The notes under the pieces: generated by a model
Told to the model about the DNA's origin: nothing
Seen by the model: only the letters and a program-made list of their open reading frames with translations
Database searches by the model: none
Virus genome (UHGV): UHGV-1709118
DNA length: 61,628 nt
Source of the DNA: a virus
Direction: 5' to 3' (one strand)
Position numbers and translations under genes: made by a program
Part shown: positions 8,900 to 61,628 of the stretch, piece after piece
Layout: each line of letters begins with the position of its first letter
How positions within the stretch are numbered: position 1 is the first letter of the stretch

Positions 8900-11638
8900 T
8901 TATCCACCAACATTTTTAGTAGTTTGCATTGTAGCACATTTATAATTTATAATTGCATAGGTAGGTTTTTCAAAACGAATACCTTTTATTAAAGTATCAG
9001 AAGGGTTCAAAATATATTTTTCAGTCGCACCGATTGTTATTTGAGTAGTTGAACCATCATTATTGTCAAGTAATAATACACTACCTTGGTCTGCTTCAAT
9101 TTCCATAGATAATATATCAGTAAAATTATAAAAAATAGTTCCATTATCCCAAGTATCAGTATCTTTATCATAATTAGAAAAACCATTTTCTATATCATAA
9201 ATTTCTTCTATTTGAAATCTACTTTTTTCTTTAACAATATCAAAAATATTTTCAGATTTAAATAAATCAAAATTAATATTATCATAGTCCCCATTTATAT
9301 CAGGAATTTGATATTGCTTTATATCATTATATCTAAAGTTATAACTCAATAAAGTTTTATCAGTAGAAGTAAAAATTCCAGCTAATTGACCCCATACTAA
9401 AGAAGTTTCAATAGCTTGAACTGTTTTAGAAATATCTTCCACTTGTGTAACTTTACAAGTATAATTTATAATAATAGGGCCACTGTATTTTAAATAGATA
9501 TTAGATAAATTATCAAAAACATCTTGTAAAACAAAAACTTTATTCTTGCCTAAAGAAAAATCTTTACCATTAATAACTAATGTAATTAAAGGATAAGTTT
9601 GTTCAGTAGTTATAAAATTAATTAACTTATTATATTCAGCGATTTTTTCATCAACTTCTTTTGTTGATAATCCCTGATGTGCTAAATCTGCGCGTTCCGC
9701 ATTTAATTCTCTTAATTCAGCTTCAAAAGTTAATACAGGATATTGTTCTACCCAAATTGAAGTTAAATTATTAAATTTATATCTATAACCACCGCCAACA
9801 TTATATTCAACTTGTTCTTTTATTTTTTCCAAAAGATTTTCTTTAGTATTATTATTTATAATACTTGTAGGTCTATCAGTATTTAAATTATTATTTAAAC
9901 TTAAAGTGCCAATATACATTCCACTTAATTGACCAAATAAATCTACAGTTTCTTCAGCAGAAAATTCTTCAAAATTACCTATATCAATAATATTTAAATT
10001 ATTTAAATTACTTAAATTAAAATCCGCAACTTCATAAGCAGTAGCAGAAAATTTGTAAATCATTCTACTTAATGTTTTTTCAGGACTTAAAGAAATATTC
10101 ATTAAATTTATAATAATATTTCCTTCTGTCGCAGATTTATATAATTTACTACTTCCATCATTTAAAAATTCTTCTACTTTATCTCTAAAAATTTTTTCAA
10201 TAAAAATATTACTATGTGTTAGATTAGTATCTATTTTTCTTTCAATAGTAGTATCTTCAATATTATCAAAAGGAATAATCAACTTATTTTTATAATAATA
10301 CCCATCTCTTCTAAGTTCAAAGAAAGTATTATCATCATCCATGTGAAAAGAAATTAATCCTGAAACAGGAAATTCTGCATAATAAGCATGACCATTGCGG
10401 AAAATGGTAGGATACTTAGAACCCAATGTATCACTCTTTGACTCTAAGACACTATGTTTAAAACTGGATAACTCAAAATTATATTCTAATTTTAATTGAA
10501 CTCCATCTTTATATAAATAACTATGTTCAAAGTTAATTCCTCTAGCAGGTTTATCAATTTCAAATAAAGGAGAAGTCCGCAATCTTGCACTATTTTCTTG
10601 CTGAAAAGCATATTTATATTTAATGCCATTTTCAATAGTGTAATCAGTATAAATTAATTCATTGACAAAAGTATGGTTAGAATATAAGAAATAACTTAAA
10701 TCTTCCCATATTGTATAATTACTTTTTTCAGAAGTTCTAATTAATACATAATTACCACTTAAAGGAGAATCAGAATTTATATATATCTTTAAACAAGCAT
10801 TTTCTATACATGAAATATCTGAATCATCAACATTAAGGGTTACTCCAACTAATTGACTTAAATATGTCTCTCTTGCCTGAAAATTATATCGTGCAGAACT
10901 AATTTCATAACCATTTATTGAAACAATTTGATAAATAACACTATAATCTTGTCCATTTTCTAAAACAGTAGAAAAACGATGTGAATCTGTATTATCTGCG
11001 GAAGCATTATGTTGCAACCAACCACTATCTTCAATTTTATCACCATGCGAATTATATAAAATAAATTTATATTTATCTACTGACTCCCTATTACTTGTAA
11101 CAAAATTGCAAGCTCCTATAATCAGTGGTGTTAAAGAAGTTTCAAGATTTTTTGCTGATTGAACGCTTTCTTTCACAGAAGTAGCATTTTTTATTTCAAT
11201 TACTGGCTCATTAATAGCTTTTATTGCCATAACTGTTGACCATTCAGAAAATGCACTTTTTTCTATTTGCTGTTTTTTCCAATTAGCAAAATCTGATATT
11301 GAATTATAAAGTGTATTTATGCCAAAACGCAATTGTACCTTATATAATTCTCCAGCACTCCATCCAGATTCTAAATCTTGTAAATTTATAGAAATAGTAT
11401 ATTGTGAGCCTTTTTGACCAATTTCATCTTTCGATTTATAAATAATTCCATCTGGATAAATAGAAGTATTTACTATTGTTCTGTTATTAGTTTGTTTTAC
11501 TAATCTAATTTGAATATGTTTTATACTACTTAAAGACATCAAATCAGGTAATGTAAAATAAATAATATAGTCAGAAACATCATAAGTAAAAGCAGGCTGC
11601 GAACTATTTATCAATGGAGGAAAAATACCAGTTGCCAA
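8900..11638 (-). CDS. large tail/baseplate protein
   Basis: 912-aa N/Y/I-rich ORF downstream of tail tip gene. Confidence 0.45.
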   Translation of the reverse strand: MATGIFPPLINSSQPAFTYDVSDYIIYFTLPDLMSLSSIKHIQIRLVKQTNNRTIVNTSIYPDGIIYKSKDEIGQKGSQYTISINLQDLESGWSAGELYKVQLRFGINTLYNSISDFANWKKQQIEKSAFSEWSTVMAIKAINEPVIEIKNATSVKESVQSAKNLETSLTPLIIGACNFVTSNRESVDKYKFILYNSHGDKIEDSGWLQHNASADNTDSHRFSTVLENGQDYSVIYQIVSINGYEISSARYNFQARETYLSQLVGVTLNVDDSDISCIENACLKIYINSDSPLSGNYVLIRTSEKSNYTIWEDLSYFLYSNHTFVNELIYTDYTIENGIKYKYAFQQENSARLRTSPLFEIDKPARGINFEHSYLYKDGVQLKLEYNFELSSFKHSVLESKSDTLGSKYPTIFRNGHAYYAEFPVSGLISFHMDDDNTFFELRRDGYYYKNKLIIPFDNIEDTTIERKIDTNLTHSNIFIEKIFRDKVEEFLNDGSSKLYKSATEGNIIINLMNISLSPEKTLSRMIYKFSATAYEVADFNLSNLNNLNIIDIGNFEEFSAEETVDLFGQLSGMYIGTLSLNNNLNTDRPTSIINNNTKENLLEKIKEQVEYNVGGGYRYKFNNLTSIWVEQYPVLTFEAELRELNAERADLAHQGLSTKEVDEKIAEYNKLINFITTEQTYPLITLVINGKDFSLGKNKVFVLQDVFDNLSNIYLKYSGPIIINYTCKVTQVEDISKTVQAIETSLVWGQLAGIFTSTDKTLLSYNFRYNDIKQYQIPDINGDYDNINFDLFKSENIFDIVKEKSRFQIEEIYDIENGFSNYDKDTDTWDNGTIFYNFTDILSMEIEADQGSVLLLDNNDGSTTQITIGATEKYILNPSDTLIKGIRFEKPTYAIINYKCATMQTTKNVGG

Positions 11639-44694: not shown

Positions 44695-45077
44695 TTTTAA
44701 ATTTCTGCGAAATTTAAAATCAGAAGGAGAGAAAATATTTTAGAAATTCGTTTTTTGAATTTAAAATTGATTTGTATCCTTTTTCAAATTTAAAAATAGT
44801 TTAGAGAGGGAAATGTCCAGGCCAAATGGTTTTTAATAACAAATATAATTTTTTTCCCGAAAACTACCCCGGAGTACGCCAAACCATTAAACTATCTTTC
44901 ATTGGTAAATATCCATTGACCCCACAAAGGCCCCATCAAACAGTATCTTCTGTAAACAACCATTCATTAATCAAAAGAGAAATGATCTTGTCAATAGGCA
45001 AATTAAACAAAATTATTCTTCAGCAAAACGCATAAAGAAGAACTCTTAATTTCTTTTTCTTTTGTTCAATGTGTCAA

Positions 45078-45106
45078 TAGACAAAAGGCTATCTCGATGG
45101 TATAAT
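45078..45106 (+). promoter_or_regulatory. early promoter
   Basis: TAGACA, 17-bp spacer, TGgTATAAT, then conserved leader acagaaattaagg. Confidence 0.45.
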
Positions 45107-47083: not shown

Positions 47084-47199
47084 GGGCCGCAAGGCCCTTT
47101 TTCTTTTTGTTATATGCTTATATGGTGAAACTTCTAGGCTTCTAGCAGTAAAAAAAAAAAAAAATAAATAAATAAAAATTTTTTTTGTTCAATTTACCT

Positions 47200-47228
47200 A
47201 TTGACAGCAAAGCAAAAGTATGGTATAA
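47200..47228 (+). promoter_or_regulatory. early promoter followed directly by GC-rich hairpin (no ORF)
   Basis: TTGACA 47200-47205, 17-bp spacer, TGgTATAAT 47220-47228; hairpin 47238-47272. Confidence 0.5.
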
Positions 47229-47462
47229 TAATTGCGGCGGCGCGCACACGACCATGGCCTCCCAGTGTGCGCCGAAATTCTGTCAATACGCAAATTGCAC
47301 AAAAATTTAGAGGAAAGTTTGGTGATTTTGCCCAGAAGTATTCATCCCGAAATGGTGTTTGTTTATAAAAAGTATAGCGGCAAAATATCATCAAAATTGA
47401 TTATTGAATTTCTTAAAAATTTTTGTTATAATAATTACAGAAAACAAAAGGAGGTCAAAAGT

Positions 47463-49232: not shown

Positions 49233-49589
49233 ATGACTAACGAGAAGAAGATTACTAACAAGGGCGCCCTTCAGTATGTTCTGGACAACTGCGAGATTCC
49301 TGCCGACGTTCGTGCCAAGATTGAGATTCTGCTCCATCAGCAGGAGAACAAGAGCCGCGGTAGTGGTAAGCCTACTGCAACTCAGACTGAGAACGCACGT
49401 CTGATTGAGGTGATTGCCGACACTCTGCCCAAGGGCGAAGCTTTCACCATCTCCGACATTACCAAGACCATTCCTGAGCTGAACGGCTTTACCCCTCAGA
49501 AGGTTGGCCCCATGCTCAAGAAGCTGGTTGAAACTGGTCGAGCCACCCGTGACACCAACAAGGGCAAGGCATACTACACTATGGTGTAA
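49233..49589 (+). CDS. hypothetical protein, paralog of 55318-55734 (possible winged-helix)
   Basis: shared motifs with 55318 ORF (QTEN...LI...KTIPEL...TPQ...PM.K.LV..G.A..DT.KG.A); about 50 percent GC. Confidence 0.5.
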   Translation: MTNEKKITNKGALQYVLDNCEIPADVRAKIEILLHQQENKSRGSGKPTATQTENARLIEVIADTLPKGEAFTISDITKTIPELNGFTPQKVGPMLKKLVETGRATRDTNKGKAYYTMV

Positions 49590-49648: not shown

Positions 49649-50011
49649 ATGATAGATGAGACTAGGGTTAAACATCTTCAAAAGGTGTTAGACCTTGATA
49701 GAGAACAAGCTTTAGCAGTTATTGCCGATGATGAAGCAATAGATAAAGGTGCAGATCTTTTCCCACTTACTGATGAACAAAAGAAAGTAGAAAAGAAAAT
49801 GCGGTTATCCGGCAAAGAGAAAGGCAAGTATACTATGAATGCTCCCCGACAGCGCAAGGTTGACAATGACAAACATCGCTTGATTGAGATTATTGCGGAA
49901 TCTCTTGAACAACTTGAAATTGAAACTACCATCAATAACCCAGAACGAGAAATTGAGATAGTTTTTAATGAAAGACGTTTCAAAATTACATTAAGCGCTC
50001 CTAGAAAATAA
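49649..50011 (+). CDS. hypothetical protein, paralog of 55759-56148
   Basis: shared DKG...LT-EQ-KV-KK ... LI ... NPER-I ... F ... TL motifs. Confidence 0.5.
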   Translation: MIDETRVKHLQKVLDLDREQALAVIADDEAIDKGADLFPLTDEQKKVEKKMRLSGKEKGKYTMNAPRQRKVDNDKHRLIEIIAESLEQLEIETTINNPEREIEIVFNERRFKITLSAPRK

Positions 50012-50263
50012 TAATAAAACCGGCTTATTTTTTATAGGCCGGTTTTCTTTTTTGCCCAATACTTTTTAATGGCAAATGTTTGACGGCCCGCGCATGGTCA
50101 AGCGCTGCCGCATTTCAATTATACCAGGTAATCCGACTTTTGTCAATGGGCAAACCGCACAATTATTTGACTTTTTGTTTTCCCAAAATTGGTGATTCTG
50201 CCTATTGATTTTTTTATTAAAATTTTATATAATATAATTGTTCCAAGGGAAAGGAGAAACAAA

Positions 50264-51776: not shown

Positions 51777-51980
51777 ATGACAGATTTTGCAAGAACTGAA
51801 ATTCTTCTTAAAGCTTTACAGGAAGCAGGAAGATACATGCGGAAATATTTACCCGCAGAAATGCCATTAGGCGAAGATGCTGATATTACAAGATACTGTT
51901 TAATAAATGGTAATCAAGACCCGGAAGGCTCTAAGTTTGTAGAATACTTCATTCTTAAAGCATTTGATAATTATAAGTAA
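51777..51980 (+). CDS. hypothetical early protein
   Basis: 67-aa ORF after promoter TTGACA 51722-51727 and RBS aaggaga. Confidence 0.45.
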   Translation: MTDFARTEILLKALQEAGRYMRKYLPAEMPLGEDADITRYCLINGNQDPEGSKFVEYFILKAFDNYK

Positions 51981-52226
51981 GGGCTAAAAGCCCTTACTTT
52001 TTTATTTCTATATTTATTATAAACAAAAGTCAAGTGATAGTAAAGTTTGGCGGCGCGTTGATGGCTGACATGCGCCGCAATTTAATTATACCTCAAGCCA
52101 CGCCTTTTGTCAAGAGCAAAAGTGCATAAAAACAAGGCAGACAAAAATCCCGAATTTGTGCATTTCGCCAATAGACAAATAAGACCTGCCGTGTTATACT
52201 ATAATCACAGTAAGGGAGGAGATAAC

Positions 52227-52937: not shown

Positions 52938-53336
52938 ATGAAAGCTACTGGTATCATTCGCCGCATCGATGACCTGGGTCGGGTGGTCATCCCCAAGGAA
53001 ATCCGCCACAATATGCACATCTGGGAAGGAGACCCTTTGGAGATTTATACTGCTTCGGATGAAATTGTTCTCCGCAAGTATGTTCCATCCGCAGAAAACA
53101 AGGCTTCTATTGCTCAGAAGTGGTTAGAGGACAATGCTCATATGTTATATGGCACTTCTGCAAAGTTCAGTATTGAGGGCAGAACTACTGTTTGCGAAGT
53201 TATCAGCAATAATCATCGCCTGACTGGAAAAGCAACAGCCACAACAAATGACACTTTCATTCCCGCGGTTGGTATGGTTATTGCTTATTGCCGAGCCGTT
53301 GGTTGGACTATTCCCAAAGAACTTATTGAGGATTAA
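52938..53336 (+). CDS. AbrB/SpoVT-family transcriptional regulator-like protein
   Basis: N-terminus GIIRRIDDLGRVVIPKEIRHNMHIWEGDPLEIY...IVLRKY matches AbrB swapped-hairpin domain signature. Confidence 0.6.
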   Translation: MKATGIIRRIDDLGRVVIPKEIRHNMHIWEGDPLEIYTASDEIVLRKYVPSAENKASIAQKWLEDNAHMLYGTSAKFSIEGRTTVCEVISNNHRLTGKATATTNDTFIPAVGMVIAYCRAVGWTIPKELIED

Positions 53337-53990: not shown

Positions 53991-54524
53991 ATGATTATGT
54001 TCTCTATCAAAAATTGTAATAGCGTTCTGGAAGGTGCTGCTCAGGTCGTTAAACTGTTCGGGGATGAACCCTTCACTTCTGATAGATATGATGCGGCTCG
54101 TGGTAAGGGACGCTCTAAGGCGGAAACTCTCTTCAACCACAACATCATCAAAGTGGTGGGTAAAGCGCCGGTCTATGATACAAATTGGCCTAGATGCAGA
54201 GAAACTGCTCCTTATGTAACAAACCGTGCCGGCGAACTTCTTATGAAGTATAAGGAATACAGAGAGCTGCCGGTAGCGGCAAAGGAAGCTCTAATTGCAG
54301 CCAATGGTGGGGAAGAGTTGGGCATCCACTATGATAGAAGTGATATTACTATCTGCTATCGAGATACTTTTGCCTTTAATGCAAGCGGGTATCAAGAATA
54401 TCTCCAGGAAGTTTATACGAATCTTCTTTTTCAGATAGAAAGTAAGAAACAGGAAGTTCTTAAAATGGAGGATTGTTTTGGTAAGGTAGTTAAAGCATTT
54501 CAAGCAAATGCAATGAAGTTATAA
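53991..54524 (+). CDS. hypothetical protein
   Basis: ORF track 53988-54524; promoter TTGACA-TGaTATAAT overlaps previous gene end. Confidence 0.45.
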   Translation: MIMFSIKNCNSVLEGAAQVVKLFGDEPFTSDRYDAARGKGRSKAETLFNHNIIKVVGKAPVYDTNWPRCRETAPYVTNRAGELLMKYKEYRELPVAAKEALIAANGGEELGIHYDRSDITICYRDTFAFNASGYQEYLQEVYTNLLFQIESKKQEVLKMEDCFGKVVKAFQANAMKL

Positions 54525-54613
54525 AAATCTTTCACTTTGTGCAATTTATCTATTGACAAAACAAAGCAAAGATGCTATAATGAATACAGAAATTAAGAAA
54601 GGAACTGATAGCT

Positions 54614-54835
54614 ATGCTGTGTATGAAGAACGTGTTCAATGTCATGAAAGGTATCACTCGCGTAAGAGATAAGTTCAGAGGAAAAGGGTTCACTTTTTCT
54701 GAGTATAGCACCGATGACTATCAGAATTACTTACGTTATTTACAGACTGCGTTTGAATTAAAAACTATGGACAAAGAGCAGGAACTTGACAAATTGAAAG
54801 CTAATCTTGACAAAGTGGAAAAGGAAATGAGATAA
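54614..54835 (+). CDS. hypothetical small protein
   Basis: 73-aa ORF; bidirectional-type terminator 54841-54867 follows. Confidence 0.45.
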   Translation: MLCMKNVFNVMKGITRVRDKFRGKGFTFSEYSTDDYQNYLRYLQTAFELKTMDKEQELDKLKANLDKVEKEMR

Positions 54836-54881
54836 AAAAATGAGGGATTTTTCCCTCATTTTTTTTTGTACATTTTGCCTA

Positions 54882-54910
54882 TTGACAAAACCGCAGCTTT
54901 ATGGTACAAT
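54882..54910 (+). promoter_or_regulatory. promoter driving ORF-free GC-rich hairpin transcript
   Basis: TTGACA 54882-54887, 17-bp spacer, TGgTACAAT 54902-54910. Confidence 0.5.
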
Positions 54911-55020
54911 GGCGCGGCGCCCACGGCTGTGGAGCGCCGAAATTTCAATTATACCACGCGGCACAAAATTTGTCAAGAGTTAAACTGCACAAAATCTATT
55001 TGGGAAAAATCCCACTTTTT
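54911..55020 (+). ncRNA. candidate small RNA (5-prime GC hairpin, weak terminator)
   Basis: promoter immediately upstream; hairpin 54911-54939; gggaaaaatccca + T-run at 55001-55020; no RBS-ATG ORF. Confidence 0.3.
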
Positions 55021-55317
55021 GTGCAATTTGCCTATTGCAATTTGGGTGAAATCTGATATAATAAATAATGTCAGGAGGGAGTAGCCCAAGAAATCCTAGG
55101 GCGGCCGACTTAGAGAAAGTATAGGAAGTAAACGGAATACATCAAGTGGTAAGTCTTATATCATGTGGTAATTGTTATTGCCCAACATGCTCTGGAAGCC
55201 GTAAATCTTGTGAAAAGTTTGCGAAACCTCTTGACAAACCCCAAGAAACATGCTATAATAAGCATGTAATCAAGAGAAGGACAAACTCTTAAAAACCAGA
55301 AAGCGAGATAGGTGTTT

Positions 55318-55734
55318 ATGGAAAATACTAACAAGAGAATTACTAAGCGTGAGCGTTTCCAGTCTTTGATTGAGCTGGTGGAACTGTGCGAAGGCCGTGA
55401 GGATGAAGGCTTTGACTTTGAGGGTCTGACCGATTTCCTTTCCAATGAGATTCGCCTGCTGGACGCTAAGAAGGGTTCCAATTCCCGCAAGCAGACTGCC
55501 CGCCAGACTGAGAATGAGCATTTTAAGGCTCTGATTGCCGAGCGGTTGACCGAAGAGGGCATGACTATTGCAATGCTCCGCAAGACCATTCCTGAACTGG
55601 AGGATTTGACTCCCCAGCGTATTGCCCCTATGTGCAAGGCTCTTGTCTCTGAGGGTATTGCTTACAAGGATACCTGCAAGGGTATCGCCCACTTTTACAA
55701 GGCGCAGGCCGTAGTAGAAGAGGAAGAGGGCTAA
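55318..55734 (+). CDS. hypothetical protein, paralog of 49233-49589
   Basis: see paralog; ATG 55318. Confidence 0.5.
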   Translation: MENTNKRITKRERFQSLIELVELCEGREDEGFDFEGLTDFLSNEIRLLDAKKGSNSRKQTARQTENEHFKALIAERLTEEGMTIAMLRKTIPELEDLTPQRIAPMCKALVSEGIAYKDTCKGIAHFYKAQAVVEEEEG

Positions 55735-55758
55735 GGCCCTCTTCCCTAGAAGGGAGGT

Positions 55759-56148
55759 ATGTTTTTGGATAAAGCAAAAGAAGCAATCGCAAGAATCCAA
55801 GCCGGCATCAAATGCAGCTATGAAAAAGCAGTAGAAATCTATAAGACAGATTGCGAGGTTGACAAAGGCATCCCGCATGAATGGGATTTGACCGAGGAAC
55901 AGCAAAAGGTAGCAAAGAAATATACTATTACCGGGCAACATACTAAGAAGCATGACCGCAAGGCTCCGGTCAAAAGAGAAAGAAAAGAGAACCCCACTAA
56001 AGCAAATTTGATTGCGGAACTTGCAGGTTTTCTTGAATCTTTGGGGATTTGTGACGTAAAAATTGCAAATCCTGAGCGACAGATTGCTTTTTCTGTGGAT
56101 AATAACGCCTTTGAGCTGACTTTAGTTCAAAAAAGGGCCAAAAAGTAA
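55759..56148 (+). CDS. hypothetical protein, paralog of 49649-50011
   Basis: see paralog; RBS gggagg. Confidence 0.5.
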   Translation: MFLDKAKEAIARIQAGIKCSYEKAVEIYKTDCEVDKGIPHEWDLTEEQQKVAKKYTITGQHTKKHDRKAPVKRERKENPTKANLIAELAGFLESLGICDVKIANPERQIAFSVDNNAFELTLVQKRAKK

Positions 56149-56205: not shown

Positions 56206-56550
56206 ATGCAACAAAAGAAAGAGTATTTGTATGTAGGTCACTATTTTGACATAGAAGGCAACTACATTCTCAAAATAGGCACTACTAACGATTTAGCCCG
56301 GAGACAGCAAGAGCATACCAGAAATTATAAGCGTTCACCTAAGTTTACTATGCCGAAATCCGCTAAGTTTGTCTATGATTGGCATCTGCCTTTATCTAAG
56401 TATTCAACTTTGCGGTATGAGGATAAGAATCGTGCAGCATGGCAGGAATCTTCTATCGGCGAATTTGTCCGCAATGACAGATTTTGCTGTAAGCAAAAGC
56501 CCAAGAAAGTAAAGGTTACTATCCGCAAAACTTATGAGATCGAGTTATAA
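56206..56550 (+). CDS. GIY-YIG-like nuclease domain protein
   Basis: YLYVGHY...ILKIGTTNDLARRQQEH resembles GIY-YIG motif (GIY ... YIG-T-N-L-R ... E/H). Confidence 0.4.
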   Translation: MQQKKEYLYVGHYFDIEGNYILKIGTTNDLARRQQEHTRNYKRSPKFTMPKSAKFVYDWHLPLSKYSTLRYEDKNRAAWQESSIGEFVRNDRFCCKQKPKKVKVTIRKTYEIEL

Positions 56551-56782: not shown

Positions 56783-57101
56783 CGGTTACCAAAGGATAGT
56801 GGTTAATAGCCACTATCCTTTTTTATCCCTATACTTGTTATAAGCAAAAGTAAAGTAATAACAAAACTCAGCGGGCCGCACTTGGTGGATGCGGCCCGAA
56901 TTCGCGTCAATACACATTTTCCACAATTTTTCTGCTTTTGATTTGTACAATTTTACTTATTGACATTTTCCTAAAATTATGTTATTATATAATCACAAAA
57001 GGAAAGGGGATTTAAAAATTTCAAAAAAATAAAAAAGGTCTTGACAAACCAGGGCAAAGATGCTATAATGAATACAGAAATTAAGGAAAGAGGTTGATAG
57101 T

Positions 57102-61162: not shown

Positions 61163-61275
61163 AAGCACCTCTCCATTTTAGAATATTTTAAGAGATTTTA
61201 TTATAAGCACCTCTCCATTTTAGAATATTTTAAGAGATTTTATTATAAGCACCTCTCCATTTTAGAATATATTTT
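61163..61275. repeat. 42-bp direct tandem repeat, about 2.7 copies (iteron-like)
   Basis: unit aagcacctctccattttagaatattttaagagattttattat at 61163, 61205 and partial at 61247. Confidence 0.7.
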
Positions 61276-61628
61276 AATAAAAACACTTCTCTAATTCGTA
61301 AACCCTTTCTTTTAATCTTCTTTATTTCCATTGAAAAAATAACTTTCAAGGTGATTTTCCCCACTACTTCTTTAAAAACCATTGCAAAAAATCTCTCCTC
61401 TAGTGTCTTTTGATGAGAAAAAACGCTATATCACAATTCGCCAATTAGAAAAAAAATCAACTCAAACTTTTAAACTGGCATCCTCACGAACCTATCTCCT
61501 TTCCGAAGATAATTCCTCTTTGAAAATAGAACGAATCCACGTCTTTAAAAACCGAGAGAATAAACATTTTCTCTCCTTCAAATACACTAATCCCATTGAT
61601 TTCCAAATCTGGGTAAAAGAGTATACTA

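Follow-up and report, generated by a model that had tools for sequence, protein, structure and literature searches.

The closest described counterparts of the locus treated here are the lambda oop RNA, the 5′ stabilisers of Firmicutes, REP elements and kissing loops of the dimerisation initiation site (DIS) type. The locus is a non-coding interval of about 450 nt in the virus genome UHGV-1709118, of which a stretch of 61,628 nt (the window) was analysed, and holds a hairpin cassette with a promoter on the minus strand (element 1, about 54828-54976) and a leader RNA predicted to be made from a plus-strand promoter, P2 (element 2). The 77-nt oop RNA of the lambda early-right region is a short antisense transcript, read from a constitutive host-type promoter against an early operon and ended by an intrinsic terminator; it covers part of the cII coding sequence at its 3′ end and works together with RNase III by an antisense mechanism. 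Firmicute 5′ stabilisers include 5′-terminal stem-loops, the STAB-SD of cryIIIA and the polypurine stabiliser of phage SP82. REP elements and BIMEs of enterobacteria are dispersed GC-rich palindromes that follow genes and lie beside terminators. Kissing-loop RNA dimers, among them the HIV-1 DIS, have been reviewed (PMC7357161), and the ROOL, GOLLD and OLE RNAs are homo-oligomeric (PMC12286853). The Bacillus phage SPbeta carries repeated operators, termed SPBRE, which are the binding sites of MrpR and share a conserved 15-bp motif (PMC10516654).

We incline, with modest confidence, to the reading that the locus is a conserved non-coding transcription-control module in which a boundary cassette and a leader RNA stand together where early-gene units meet. 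From A55068 onwards the 5′ domain of the leader keeps 83-93% nucleotide identity in distinct phages, against 28-37% identity for the protein of the adjacent gene 55318. Because this gene has diverged past nucleotide recognition while the module has been kept, selection acts here on elements of RNA or DNA to which standard annotation is blind. When 3.1 kb was compared across phages, similarity recurred only in the module, in promoter-type sequences elsewhere in the stretch and in one T5orf172-type gene, and nothing in the part of the early region so compared is better conserved at the nucleotide level than the non-coding interval. At least 14 loci share the arrangement of the window, with the antisense hairpin cassette 100-400 nt upstream of a P2-type RNA and on the opposite strand, and the related locus L092 is collinear with the window over 54860-55152. 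The sequence anatomy, family memberships, covariation, strand preference and conservation given below were all observed directly. Rfam 15 had no match for either element at its gathering threshold in the window (sub-threshold terminator-type matches only, E up to 10), found one tRNA and nothing else in 12 related loci and nothing relevant in the long-form locus L072, and no prior description of either element was found in the literature. A blastn comparison of the interval 54500-55800 with the GenBank phage collection gave no nucleotide match; as far as that collection reaches, the module is carried by no cultured relative.

The cassette begins at a bidirectional intrinsic terminator (54834..54865, both strands), whose folded 14-bp stem stands between an A-run and a T-run and is predicted to end both the plus-strand gene 54614-54835 and the minus-strand hairpin RNA. 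On the plus strand follows promoter 1 (P1; 54882..54910, TTGACA-17-TGGTACAAT with TACAAT as −10 box, 11/12 consensus positions, TG-extended). Its predicted start, at about 54917, falls within the 5′ arm of a GC-rich hairpin at 54915..54939 (CGGCGC-U-CCAC, loop AGCC, GUGG-GCGCCG), which is supported by folding, by a minus-strand match (54908-54953) to the covariance model R1 described below and by covariation across its family. Beyond the hairpin lies a TG-extended minus-strand promoter that fits the consensus at 12/12 positions (54948..54976, TTGACA-17-TGGTATAAT; predicted start about 54941). The two promoters face each other, with their predicted starts at the two feet of the hairpin, and a facing sense promoter of the P1 type is retained at the orthologous element in L069, L072 and L023. 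The earlier note on this DNA had correctly placed P1, P2 and promoter 3 (P3) on the plus strand and had missed the minus-strand promoter (54976..54948), the strongest signal of the interval, together with the strong minus-strand terminator (54865..54834). Between these two signals a minus-strand RNA of about 113 nt (copy C, 54828..54941, ends predicted from promoter and terminator) would carry, in order, a short 5′ leader, the GC hairpin, a spacer antisense to P1 and the terminator. Its fold has an energy of −46.7 kcal/mol (z = −6.7), and it would be the sole well-terminated small RNA of the interval. A 58-bp spacer (54977..55034) separates the back-to-back −35 boxes of the minus-strand promoter and P2, and holds a weak hairpin (55001-55014) and an inverted pair of TTTGTGCA-type upstream motifs, its motifs belonging to motif families D2, D14 and D16.

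Element 1 belongs to a dispersed family in which a consensus promoter is followed by a 5′ GC hairpin and usually by a terminator; three intact and two decayed copies occur in the window. Consensus-type minus-strand promoters (≤1 mismatch) number only three there (50146, 52113 and 54976), and downstream of each come a GC hairpin and, after it, the terminator that serves the upstream plus-strand gene (motif family D9). The paralogous copies on the minus strand are copy A (50016..50146, with promoter 50146..50118, hairpin 50083-50111 and terminator 50016-50046) and copy B (51975..52113, with promoter 52113..52085, hairpin 52050-52078 and terminator hairpin 51975-51999). Copy D (47201..47274, plus strand) is decayed: an intact sense promoter feeds a GC hairpin at about 47238-47274, and the antisense partner is a −35 box abutting the hairpin. 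Copy E (56872..56898) consists of a GC hairpin abutted by a remnant antisense −35 box (TTGACG) with no −10 box. A short form of the cassette, which lacks the spacer and −10 box and has GAATT(T)CGG directly beside the antisense −35 box, is seen at 47265-47290, at 56899-56915 and in L090 and L084. Its junction is the same in different phages, which suggests that deletion between short AAATT repeats has happened repeatedly or that the form is functionally distinct.

R1, a covariance model of the hairpin unit built after a pattern search of related phage loci, gave 118 matches (103 distinct elements) in about 0.95 Mb of related loci and zero in about 35 unrelated loci of the same search. A strong hairpin follows 22/23 antisense promoters, that is, promoters on the non-gene strand, compared with 7/87 gene-strand promoters (nine sources), and the median folding energy over 45 nt is −18.2 kcal/mol after antisense and −1.6 kcal/mol after sense promoters (p = 3e-10); several of the seven hairpin-bearing gene-strand promoters are facing partners or decayed copies. 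The stems have 95% of their cells paired (34-37% in slid controls) and two-sided changes in 160 cells (44 in shuffles), with such changes in 8 of 9 pairs. Stem sequences vary freely among copies, even inside one phage, while complementarity is kept. Ninety-nine of the 103 copies lie opposite the majority promoter strand and so run against the early genes, and 39/103 have a facing sense promoter within 60 nt. The gap from the antisense −35 box to the next sense −35 box measures 58 nt in 16 of 31 related cassettes, all three window copies among them, and 68 nt in 8, two peaks that differ by about one helical turn. The hairpin begins 8-10 nt past the −10 box, or 1-4 nt from the predicted start. 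A conserved upstream motif, TTTGTGCAATTTGCCTA, directly precedes the −35 box in a subset of promoters on the plus strand (45061-45085, 47179-47203, 52155-52179, 54536-54560, 54865-54889, 55016-55040 and 56938-56962) and on the reverse strand (50147-50162, 52114-52129 and 54977-54992), and two of its copies form an inverted pair in divergent cassettes. This motif does not look like an A/T-rich UP element of the classical kind and may be bound by a transcription factor.

We propose that in the boundary cassette a perfect host-type promoter fires against the early-gene direction, and that its transcript starts within a few bases of the GC hairpin and stops at the bidirectional terminator of the upstream gene, leaving an RNA clamped by a hairpin at both ends. 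Across the hairpin this promoter faces P1, and because the predicted RNA polymerase footprints overlap, only one of the two would be occupied at a time. On its other side it would partner the divergent P2, back to back, at a fixed spacing of 58 bp and in a fixed helical phase. The antisense unit may mark and insulate the boundary and compete with the facing P1; since it is short and closed by hairpin and terminator, silencing of the upstream gene by collision seems unlikely.

The cassette resembles oop at the sequence level, in its consensus promoter, its terminator and the orientation of its copies against the genes. Its predicted 3′ ends overlap the upstream ORFs (open reading frames) by only about 2-12 nt, unlike the overlap of oop with cII, and its conserved feature is a sequence-free 5′ GC hairpin in a unit that is repeated many times per genome. 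Like REP elements, the cassettes are dispersed GC-rich palindromes placed after genes and beside terminators; REP elements, however, share a sequence consensus and have no dedicated promoter, whereas the cassette conserves structure only and includes a perfect antisense promoter. SPBRE likewise recurs between genes, in the promoter regions of a large siphovirus of Firmicutes, and the terminase of the studied phage is YonF-like, as in SPbeta. Identity with the SPBRE/MrpR operators was rejected, as SPBRE is a 15-bp protein-binding motif and the cassette lacks a conserved core sequence and is recognised by base pairs that covary. Several other candidates were set aside. The GC hairpin is not itself an intrinsic terminator: the next bases are CCAUUG on the minus strand and AAAUUUC on the plus strand, neither a U-tract, and the true terminators are separate hairpins. 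A CRISPR-repeat mimic or RNA anti-CRISPR, prompted by ATTGAAAT beside the hairpin, does not fit, the motif order being wrong and the stems and loops differing among copies within one phage; GGA loops of the CsrA type are present in only a few copies. The ORF list of the interval held no small hydrophobic toxin of a type I toxin-antitoxin system.

Element 2 starts from P2 (55035..55062, plus strand; TTGCAA-16-TGATATAAT with TATAAT as −10 box, 10/12, TG), where the relatives inspected have a consensus-type promoter at the same place. Its predicted extent is 55068..55236, 169 nt from A55068 to the end of a closing helix, with a conserved 5′ domain, a variable middle arm and a conserved 3′ block. 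Scans of viral and metagenome sequences yielded 56 distinct full-length homologues (95, 136-145, 169 and 221-235 nt), all of which start 5 nt past the −10 box and consist of a 5′ domain (about 66 nt), an arm whose length varies widely and a 3′ block with the −35 box of the following promoter at its end; a specific pattern of the 5′ domain had zero matches in bacterial genomes. The 5′ strand of the closing helix, UGUCAGGAGG (55069..55078), pairs with 55227-55236 in both RNAfold and RNAalifold and includes a Shine-Dalgarno (SD)-like AGGAGG that has no start codon at working distance downstream. Across homologues the first ten nucleotides, UGUCARGAGG, pair with CCUCUUGACA of the 3′ block, and the variants produce G.U wobbles plus one extension and one mismatch. 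Counted from the predicted start, the P2 RNA would be helical from +2 and carry AGGAGG at +6 to +11.

Within the 5′ domain, hairpin H2 (55096..55113, plus strand) combines a covarying 5-bp stem with the loop G-CGGCCG-A, whose core (55102-55107) is self-complementary. Among 31 distinct 5′ domains the stem is 99% paired with three covarying pairs, and the loop 6-mer is self-complementary in 100%, adjacent positions included; no shuffle reached the stem and loop values. The 6-mer occurs in seven variants, namely CGCGCG (n=32), UGCGCA (n=18), CGGCCG (n=2, in the window and L235) and UCGCGA, UGGCCA, GCGCGC and UGUGCA (n=1 each), the last being self-complementary through a G.U pair. Its central adjacent positions covary from CG to GC, and since adjacent positions cannot pair within one molecule, the covariation cannot reflect an intramolecular pair. 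Almost all loci lack a second copy of the loop 6-mer within 600 nt, and hence a second intramolecular partner. The simplest reading, which this pattern suggests, is that the H2 loop forms a kissing-loop contact between two copies of the RNA. G.U pairs are frequent in H2 on the plus strand, which fixes the RNA strand as plus.

Downstream of H2, the variable arm (55143..55210, plus strand) may be closed by CAAG (55143-46) and CUUG (55207-10), replaced by CACG/CGUG in most relatives, a single compensatory event. The conserved block GTGAAAAGTTTGCGAAACCTCTTGACA (55210..55236, plus strand), which also gives the 3′ strand of the closing helix, is probably an upstream (UP-like) element together with the −35 box of P3, since the same block precedes promoters in 55 viral contigs whose upstream inserts are unrelated. 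P3 itself (55231..55259, plus strand) is a perfect consensus promoter (12/12, TG) that drives gene 55318-55734. No terminator follows the leader, so P2 transcripts should run through P3 into gene 55318; for the same reason the simplest view of the plus-strand transcripts from P1 and P2 is that they are long leaders of that gene, one nested in the other, and that P3 is internal to them. Two features proposed for the leader were rejected: the variants give no support to a GUAAAC/GUUUGC helix suggested by RNAalifold, and a GNRA reading of the GTTTG-NR-AAAC block is better explained by the upstream promoter element, the pattern being partly imposed by the search. In L023 a second, tandem P2-type RNA (11420-11560) lies just upstream of the orthologous one and shares its 5′ GUCAAGAGGGA; it has a 13-bp closing helix (GUCAAGAGGGAAU/AUUCCCUCUUGAC) and a tRNA T-arm-like GGGTTCAAATCCC. 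ARAGORN finds no tRNA at that place, and a search for tRNA and tmRNA found none in the window or in L023.

H2 is DIS-like in having a GC-rich self-complementary 6-mer in a purine-flanked loop whose palindromy is kept by symmetric double substitutions. Unlike DIS, ROOL, GOLLD and OLE, to which it bears no sequence or Rfam relation, the P2 RNA is small (95-235 nt) and forms the leader of a phage early mRNA, and its dimer is suggested by covariation alone. The predicted starts place a strong stem within a few nucleotides of the 5′ end of both RNAs, as in 5′ stabilisers, and the AGGAGG near the 5′ end of the P2 leader, with no start codon to serve, is STAB-SD-like; stem and SD-like tract are two known designs of Firmicute 5′ stabilisers. 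Known 5′ stabilisers sit on protein-coding mRNAs, whereas the antisense hairpin RNA carries a terminator only. By this analogy the 5′ hairpin and the 5′ helix would protect their RNAs from 5′-end-dependent decay. P2 would make a structured leader of about 170 nt that has a 5′-terminal helix with the P3 −35 region, an SD-like purine tract and a kissing-loop hairpin but no terminator, and it is probably as a dimer that this leader influences expression from the stack of P1, P2 and P3.

Judged by the coding tests, the interval, which lies between early genes, is truly non-coding. The earlier note had seen no convincing ORF here and had regarded 54866-55084 as likely spurious. Both judgements hold: 54866-55084 and 55146-55292 have no match in Pfam or PHROGs, and across element 1 the tblastn matches of relatives are equal in all six frames, which indicates conservation of a DNA-level repeat and not of a protein. 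The ORF after P2, previously given as 15 codons, actually has 18 (55068-55124) and opens with ATG at the predicted +1. P2 might then drive a leaderless mRNA for a micro-protein of at least 18 residues (MSGGSSPRNPRAADLEKV), conserved at the protein level; all 53 homologues beginning (A/T)TGTC keep the frame open over 18 codons or more, and by hand count 5/7 variable sites in codons 2-10 are synonymous. That idea is very unlikely, however, as TTG stands in place of ATG in 12/56 homologues, the length up to the stop varies between 18 and 83 codons, an insertion shifts the frame in the closest relative, the conserved blocks at the 5′ and 3′ ends do not share a frame (length mod 3 = 26/20/10), and the amino-acid changes track the RNA, paired A-to-V and D-to-N changes being exactly the symmetric substitutions that preserve the loop palindrome. 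A conserved translated ORF, named in the earlier note as the finding that would overturn it, did not emerge. The TAG at 55122-55124 that ends the 18-codon frame is CAG, GAG or AAG in relatives, where the frame stays open much longer; this variation is most simply that of a free RNA position, although TAG recoding occurs in some gut phages. The same note had pictured two small non-coding RNAs in tandem, which would be discrete plus-strand RNAs, one of about 100 nt from P1 ending at 55001-55020 and a free one of about 190 nt from P2. The non-coding stretch, its promoters, a conserved RNA structure encoded in it and the passage from P1 into the hairpin (stem 54915-39) all stand; a hairpin with a T-run does occur at 55001-55020, and P1-type promoters are conserved at the orthologous elements. 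Discreteness is what fails, and we regard the pair as distinctly unlikely: the supposed weak terminator is a 5-bp stem (55001-55014) altered in the closest, 94-96% identical relative, its T-run belongs to the P2 upstream motif, P2 is joined to gene 55318 without a terminator, and the hairpin unit is tied across its family to the opposite-strand promoter in more than 100 copies.

Several features of the loci weigh against the transcription-control module as we read it. Transcript start sites, 3′ ends and RNA abundance are predictions. The R1-based alignment was fitted to the model and is thereby biased towards structure, and many homologues are closely related, so that counts of covarying cells overstate the number of independent events. 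The closing helix hardly varies, its 3′ strand being constrained by promoter function regardless. By a crude test a terminator follows just 30/60 intact elements, and copies D and E persist without a working antisense promoter, so the hairpin may matter without antisense transcription. Element 1 stems are nearly all Watson-Crick (742/783 cells, with 3 G.U and 12 A.C/C.A), and with so few wobbles in either orientation the palindrome is strand-symmetric. This symmetry fits use by both facing promoters and also leaves room for a role at the DNA level, as a cruciform or protein site, conceivable for stems that carry no clear RNA-strand signature. The GC palindromes might on that account be DNA elements (cruciforms, or protein, gyrase or replication sites at module boundaries) to which the promoters are secondary, as their fixed, helically phased spacing to the neighbouring promoter, their constant position between a terminator and the next promoter and the retention of promoter-less copies would also allow. 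Yet a sequence-specific protein site would conserve sequence, and the stems differ freely within one phage; perfect consensus promoters are placed to start transcription at the hairpin base in most copies, and convergent transcription would disfavour cruciform extrusion. We hold this alternative to be unlikely, though not strongly so. The most doubtful of the alternatives makes the minus-strand promoters antitermination-dependent switches in the manner of lambda PR′/6S RNA or put/nut: they would give short terminated RNAs early and, once modified, leftward read-through that silences the early region and reaches the late operon on the same strand (about 41.3 kb). All three promoters do face the structural operon on the minus strand, each has a promoter-proximal hairpin and a terminator downstream, and a conserved G-rich TGCGG-type motif in the promoter spacer could be a factor-binding site; but no protein was recognised as an antiterminator, the late operon is 9-14 kb distant from the promoters with several terminators in between, and hairpin loops and stems have no conserved recognition sequence.

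A further step from the transcription-control module, which we put forward only tentatively and believe rather less than the module itself, is that both elements represent new functional classes, the leader a self-dimerising RNA and the cassettes a dedicated punctuation system. If so, the paired state of the leader would control early gene expression or recruit a host factor, and the cassettes would organise early transcription in a large clade of phages of gut Clostridia through promoter competition, insulation or supercoil coupling; alternatively, abundant hairpin RNAs with a 5′ triphosphate would act on the RNA-decay or defence machinery of the host. The hairpin cassette, seen in more than 100 copies when about 1 Mb from related loci was sampled, offers a simple marker by which the layout of the early region can be searched for across a clade of uncultured phages (80-200 kb) from gut and rumen. 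In the leader RNA a bacterial virus supplies a small natural example of a kissing-loop palindrome supported by covariation, and the 5′ clamps, if they prove to be RNA stabilisers or insulators, would be useful parts for Firmicute engineering.

The DNA of the window seems to come from a large tailed phage. Structural genes occupy the minus strand from about 3.5 to 41.3 kb and short genes the plus strand from 41.5 to about 59 kb. Its terminase shares about 47% identity with the terminases of large siphoviruses of Enterococcus and Geobacillus, with a lower-identity match to the SPbeta-like YonF terminase. A near-identical IMG/VR contig of 137.7 kb has 94-96% identity across the studied interval; remoter relatives are contigs of 80-200 kb from human gut and rumen samples, some of them binned into metagenome-assembled genomes of Oscillospiraceae or Clostridia, and the phage is one of gut or rumen that probably infects Clostridia. 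Perfect host-type promoters are very dense in the plus-strand region: the window has 25 occurrences of the extended pattern TTGACA-N14-TGNTATAAT (≤1 mismatch), where chance predicts 0.05. Seven related loci (L110, L116, L117, L120, L125, L130 and L132) have tandem arrays of 3-4 consensus promoters about 250 nt upstream of a GTTTGAAAAACCTCTTGACA match, separated by non-coding spacers of 60-80 nt with no intervening gene.

Proteins flanking the interval had no informative match in Pfam, PHROG, NCBIfam or PDB. An early-gene pair is duplicated, 49233-49589 and 49649-50011 corresponding to 55318-55734 and 55759-56148, and a 5′ untranslated hairpin of the 49233 copy, GGGTAGCGACCTACC, also precedes the homologous gene in L072 and L098. 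The early gene 52938-53336 has an AbrB/MazE-type antitoxin-like N-terminal domain (Pfam PF04014, E = 1e-9; PHROG 'antitoxin'). Gene 56206-56550, which is T5orf172/GIY-YIG-like, is the sole coding sequence in 53.9-57 kb with nucleotide-level similarity to other phages (about 70% to L064, L084 and L090), which mobility may explain. Three tandem 42-nt units at 61163-61288, two identical and one 69% identical, lie near the end of the related 137.7-kb contig and may be a genome-terminus or packaging feature.

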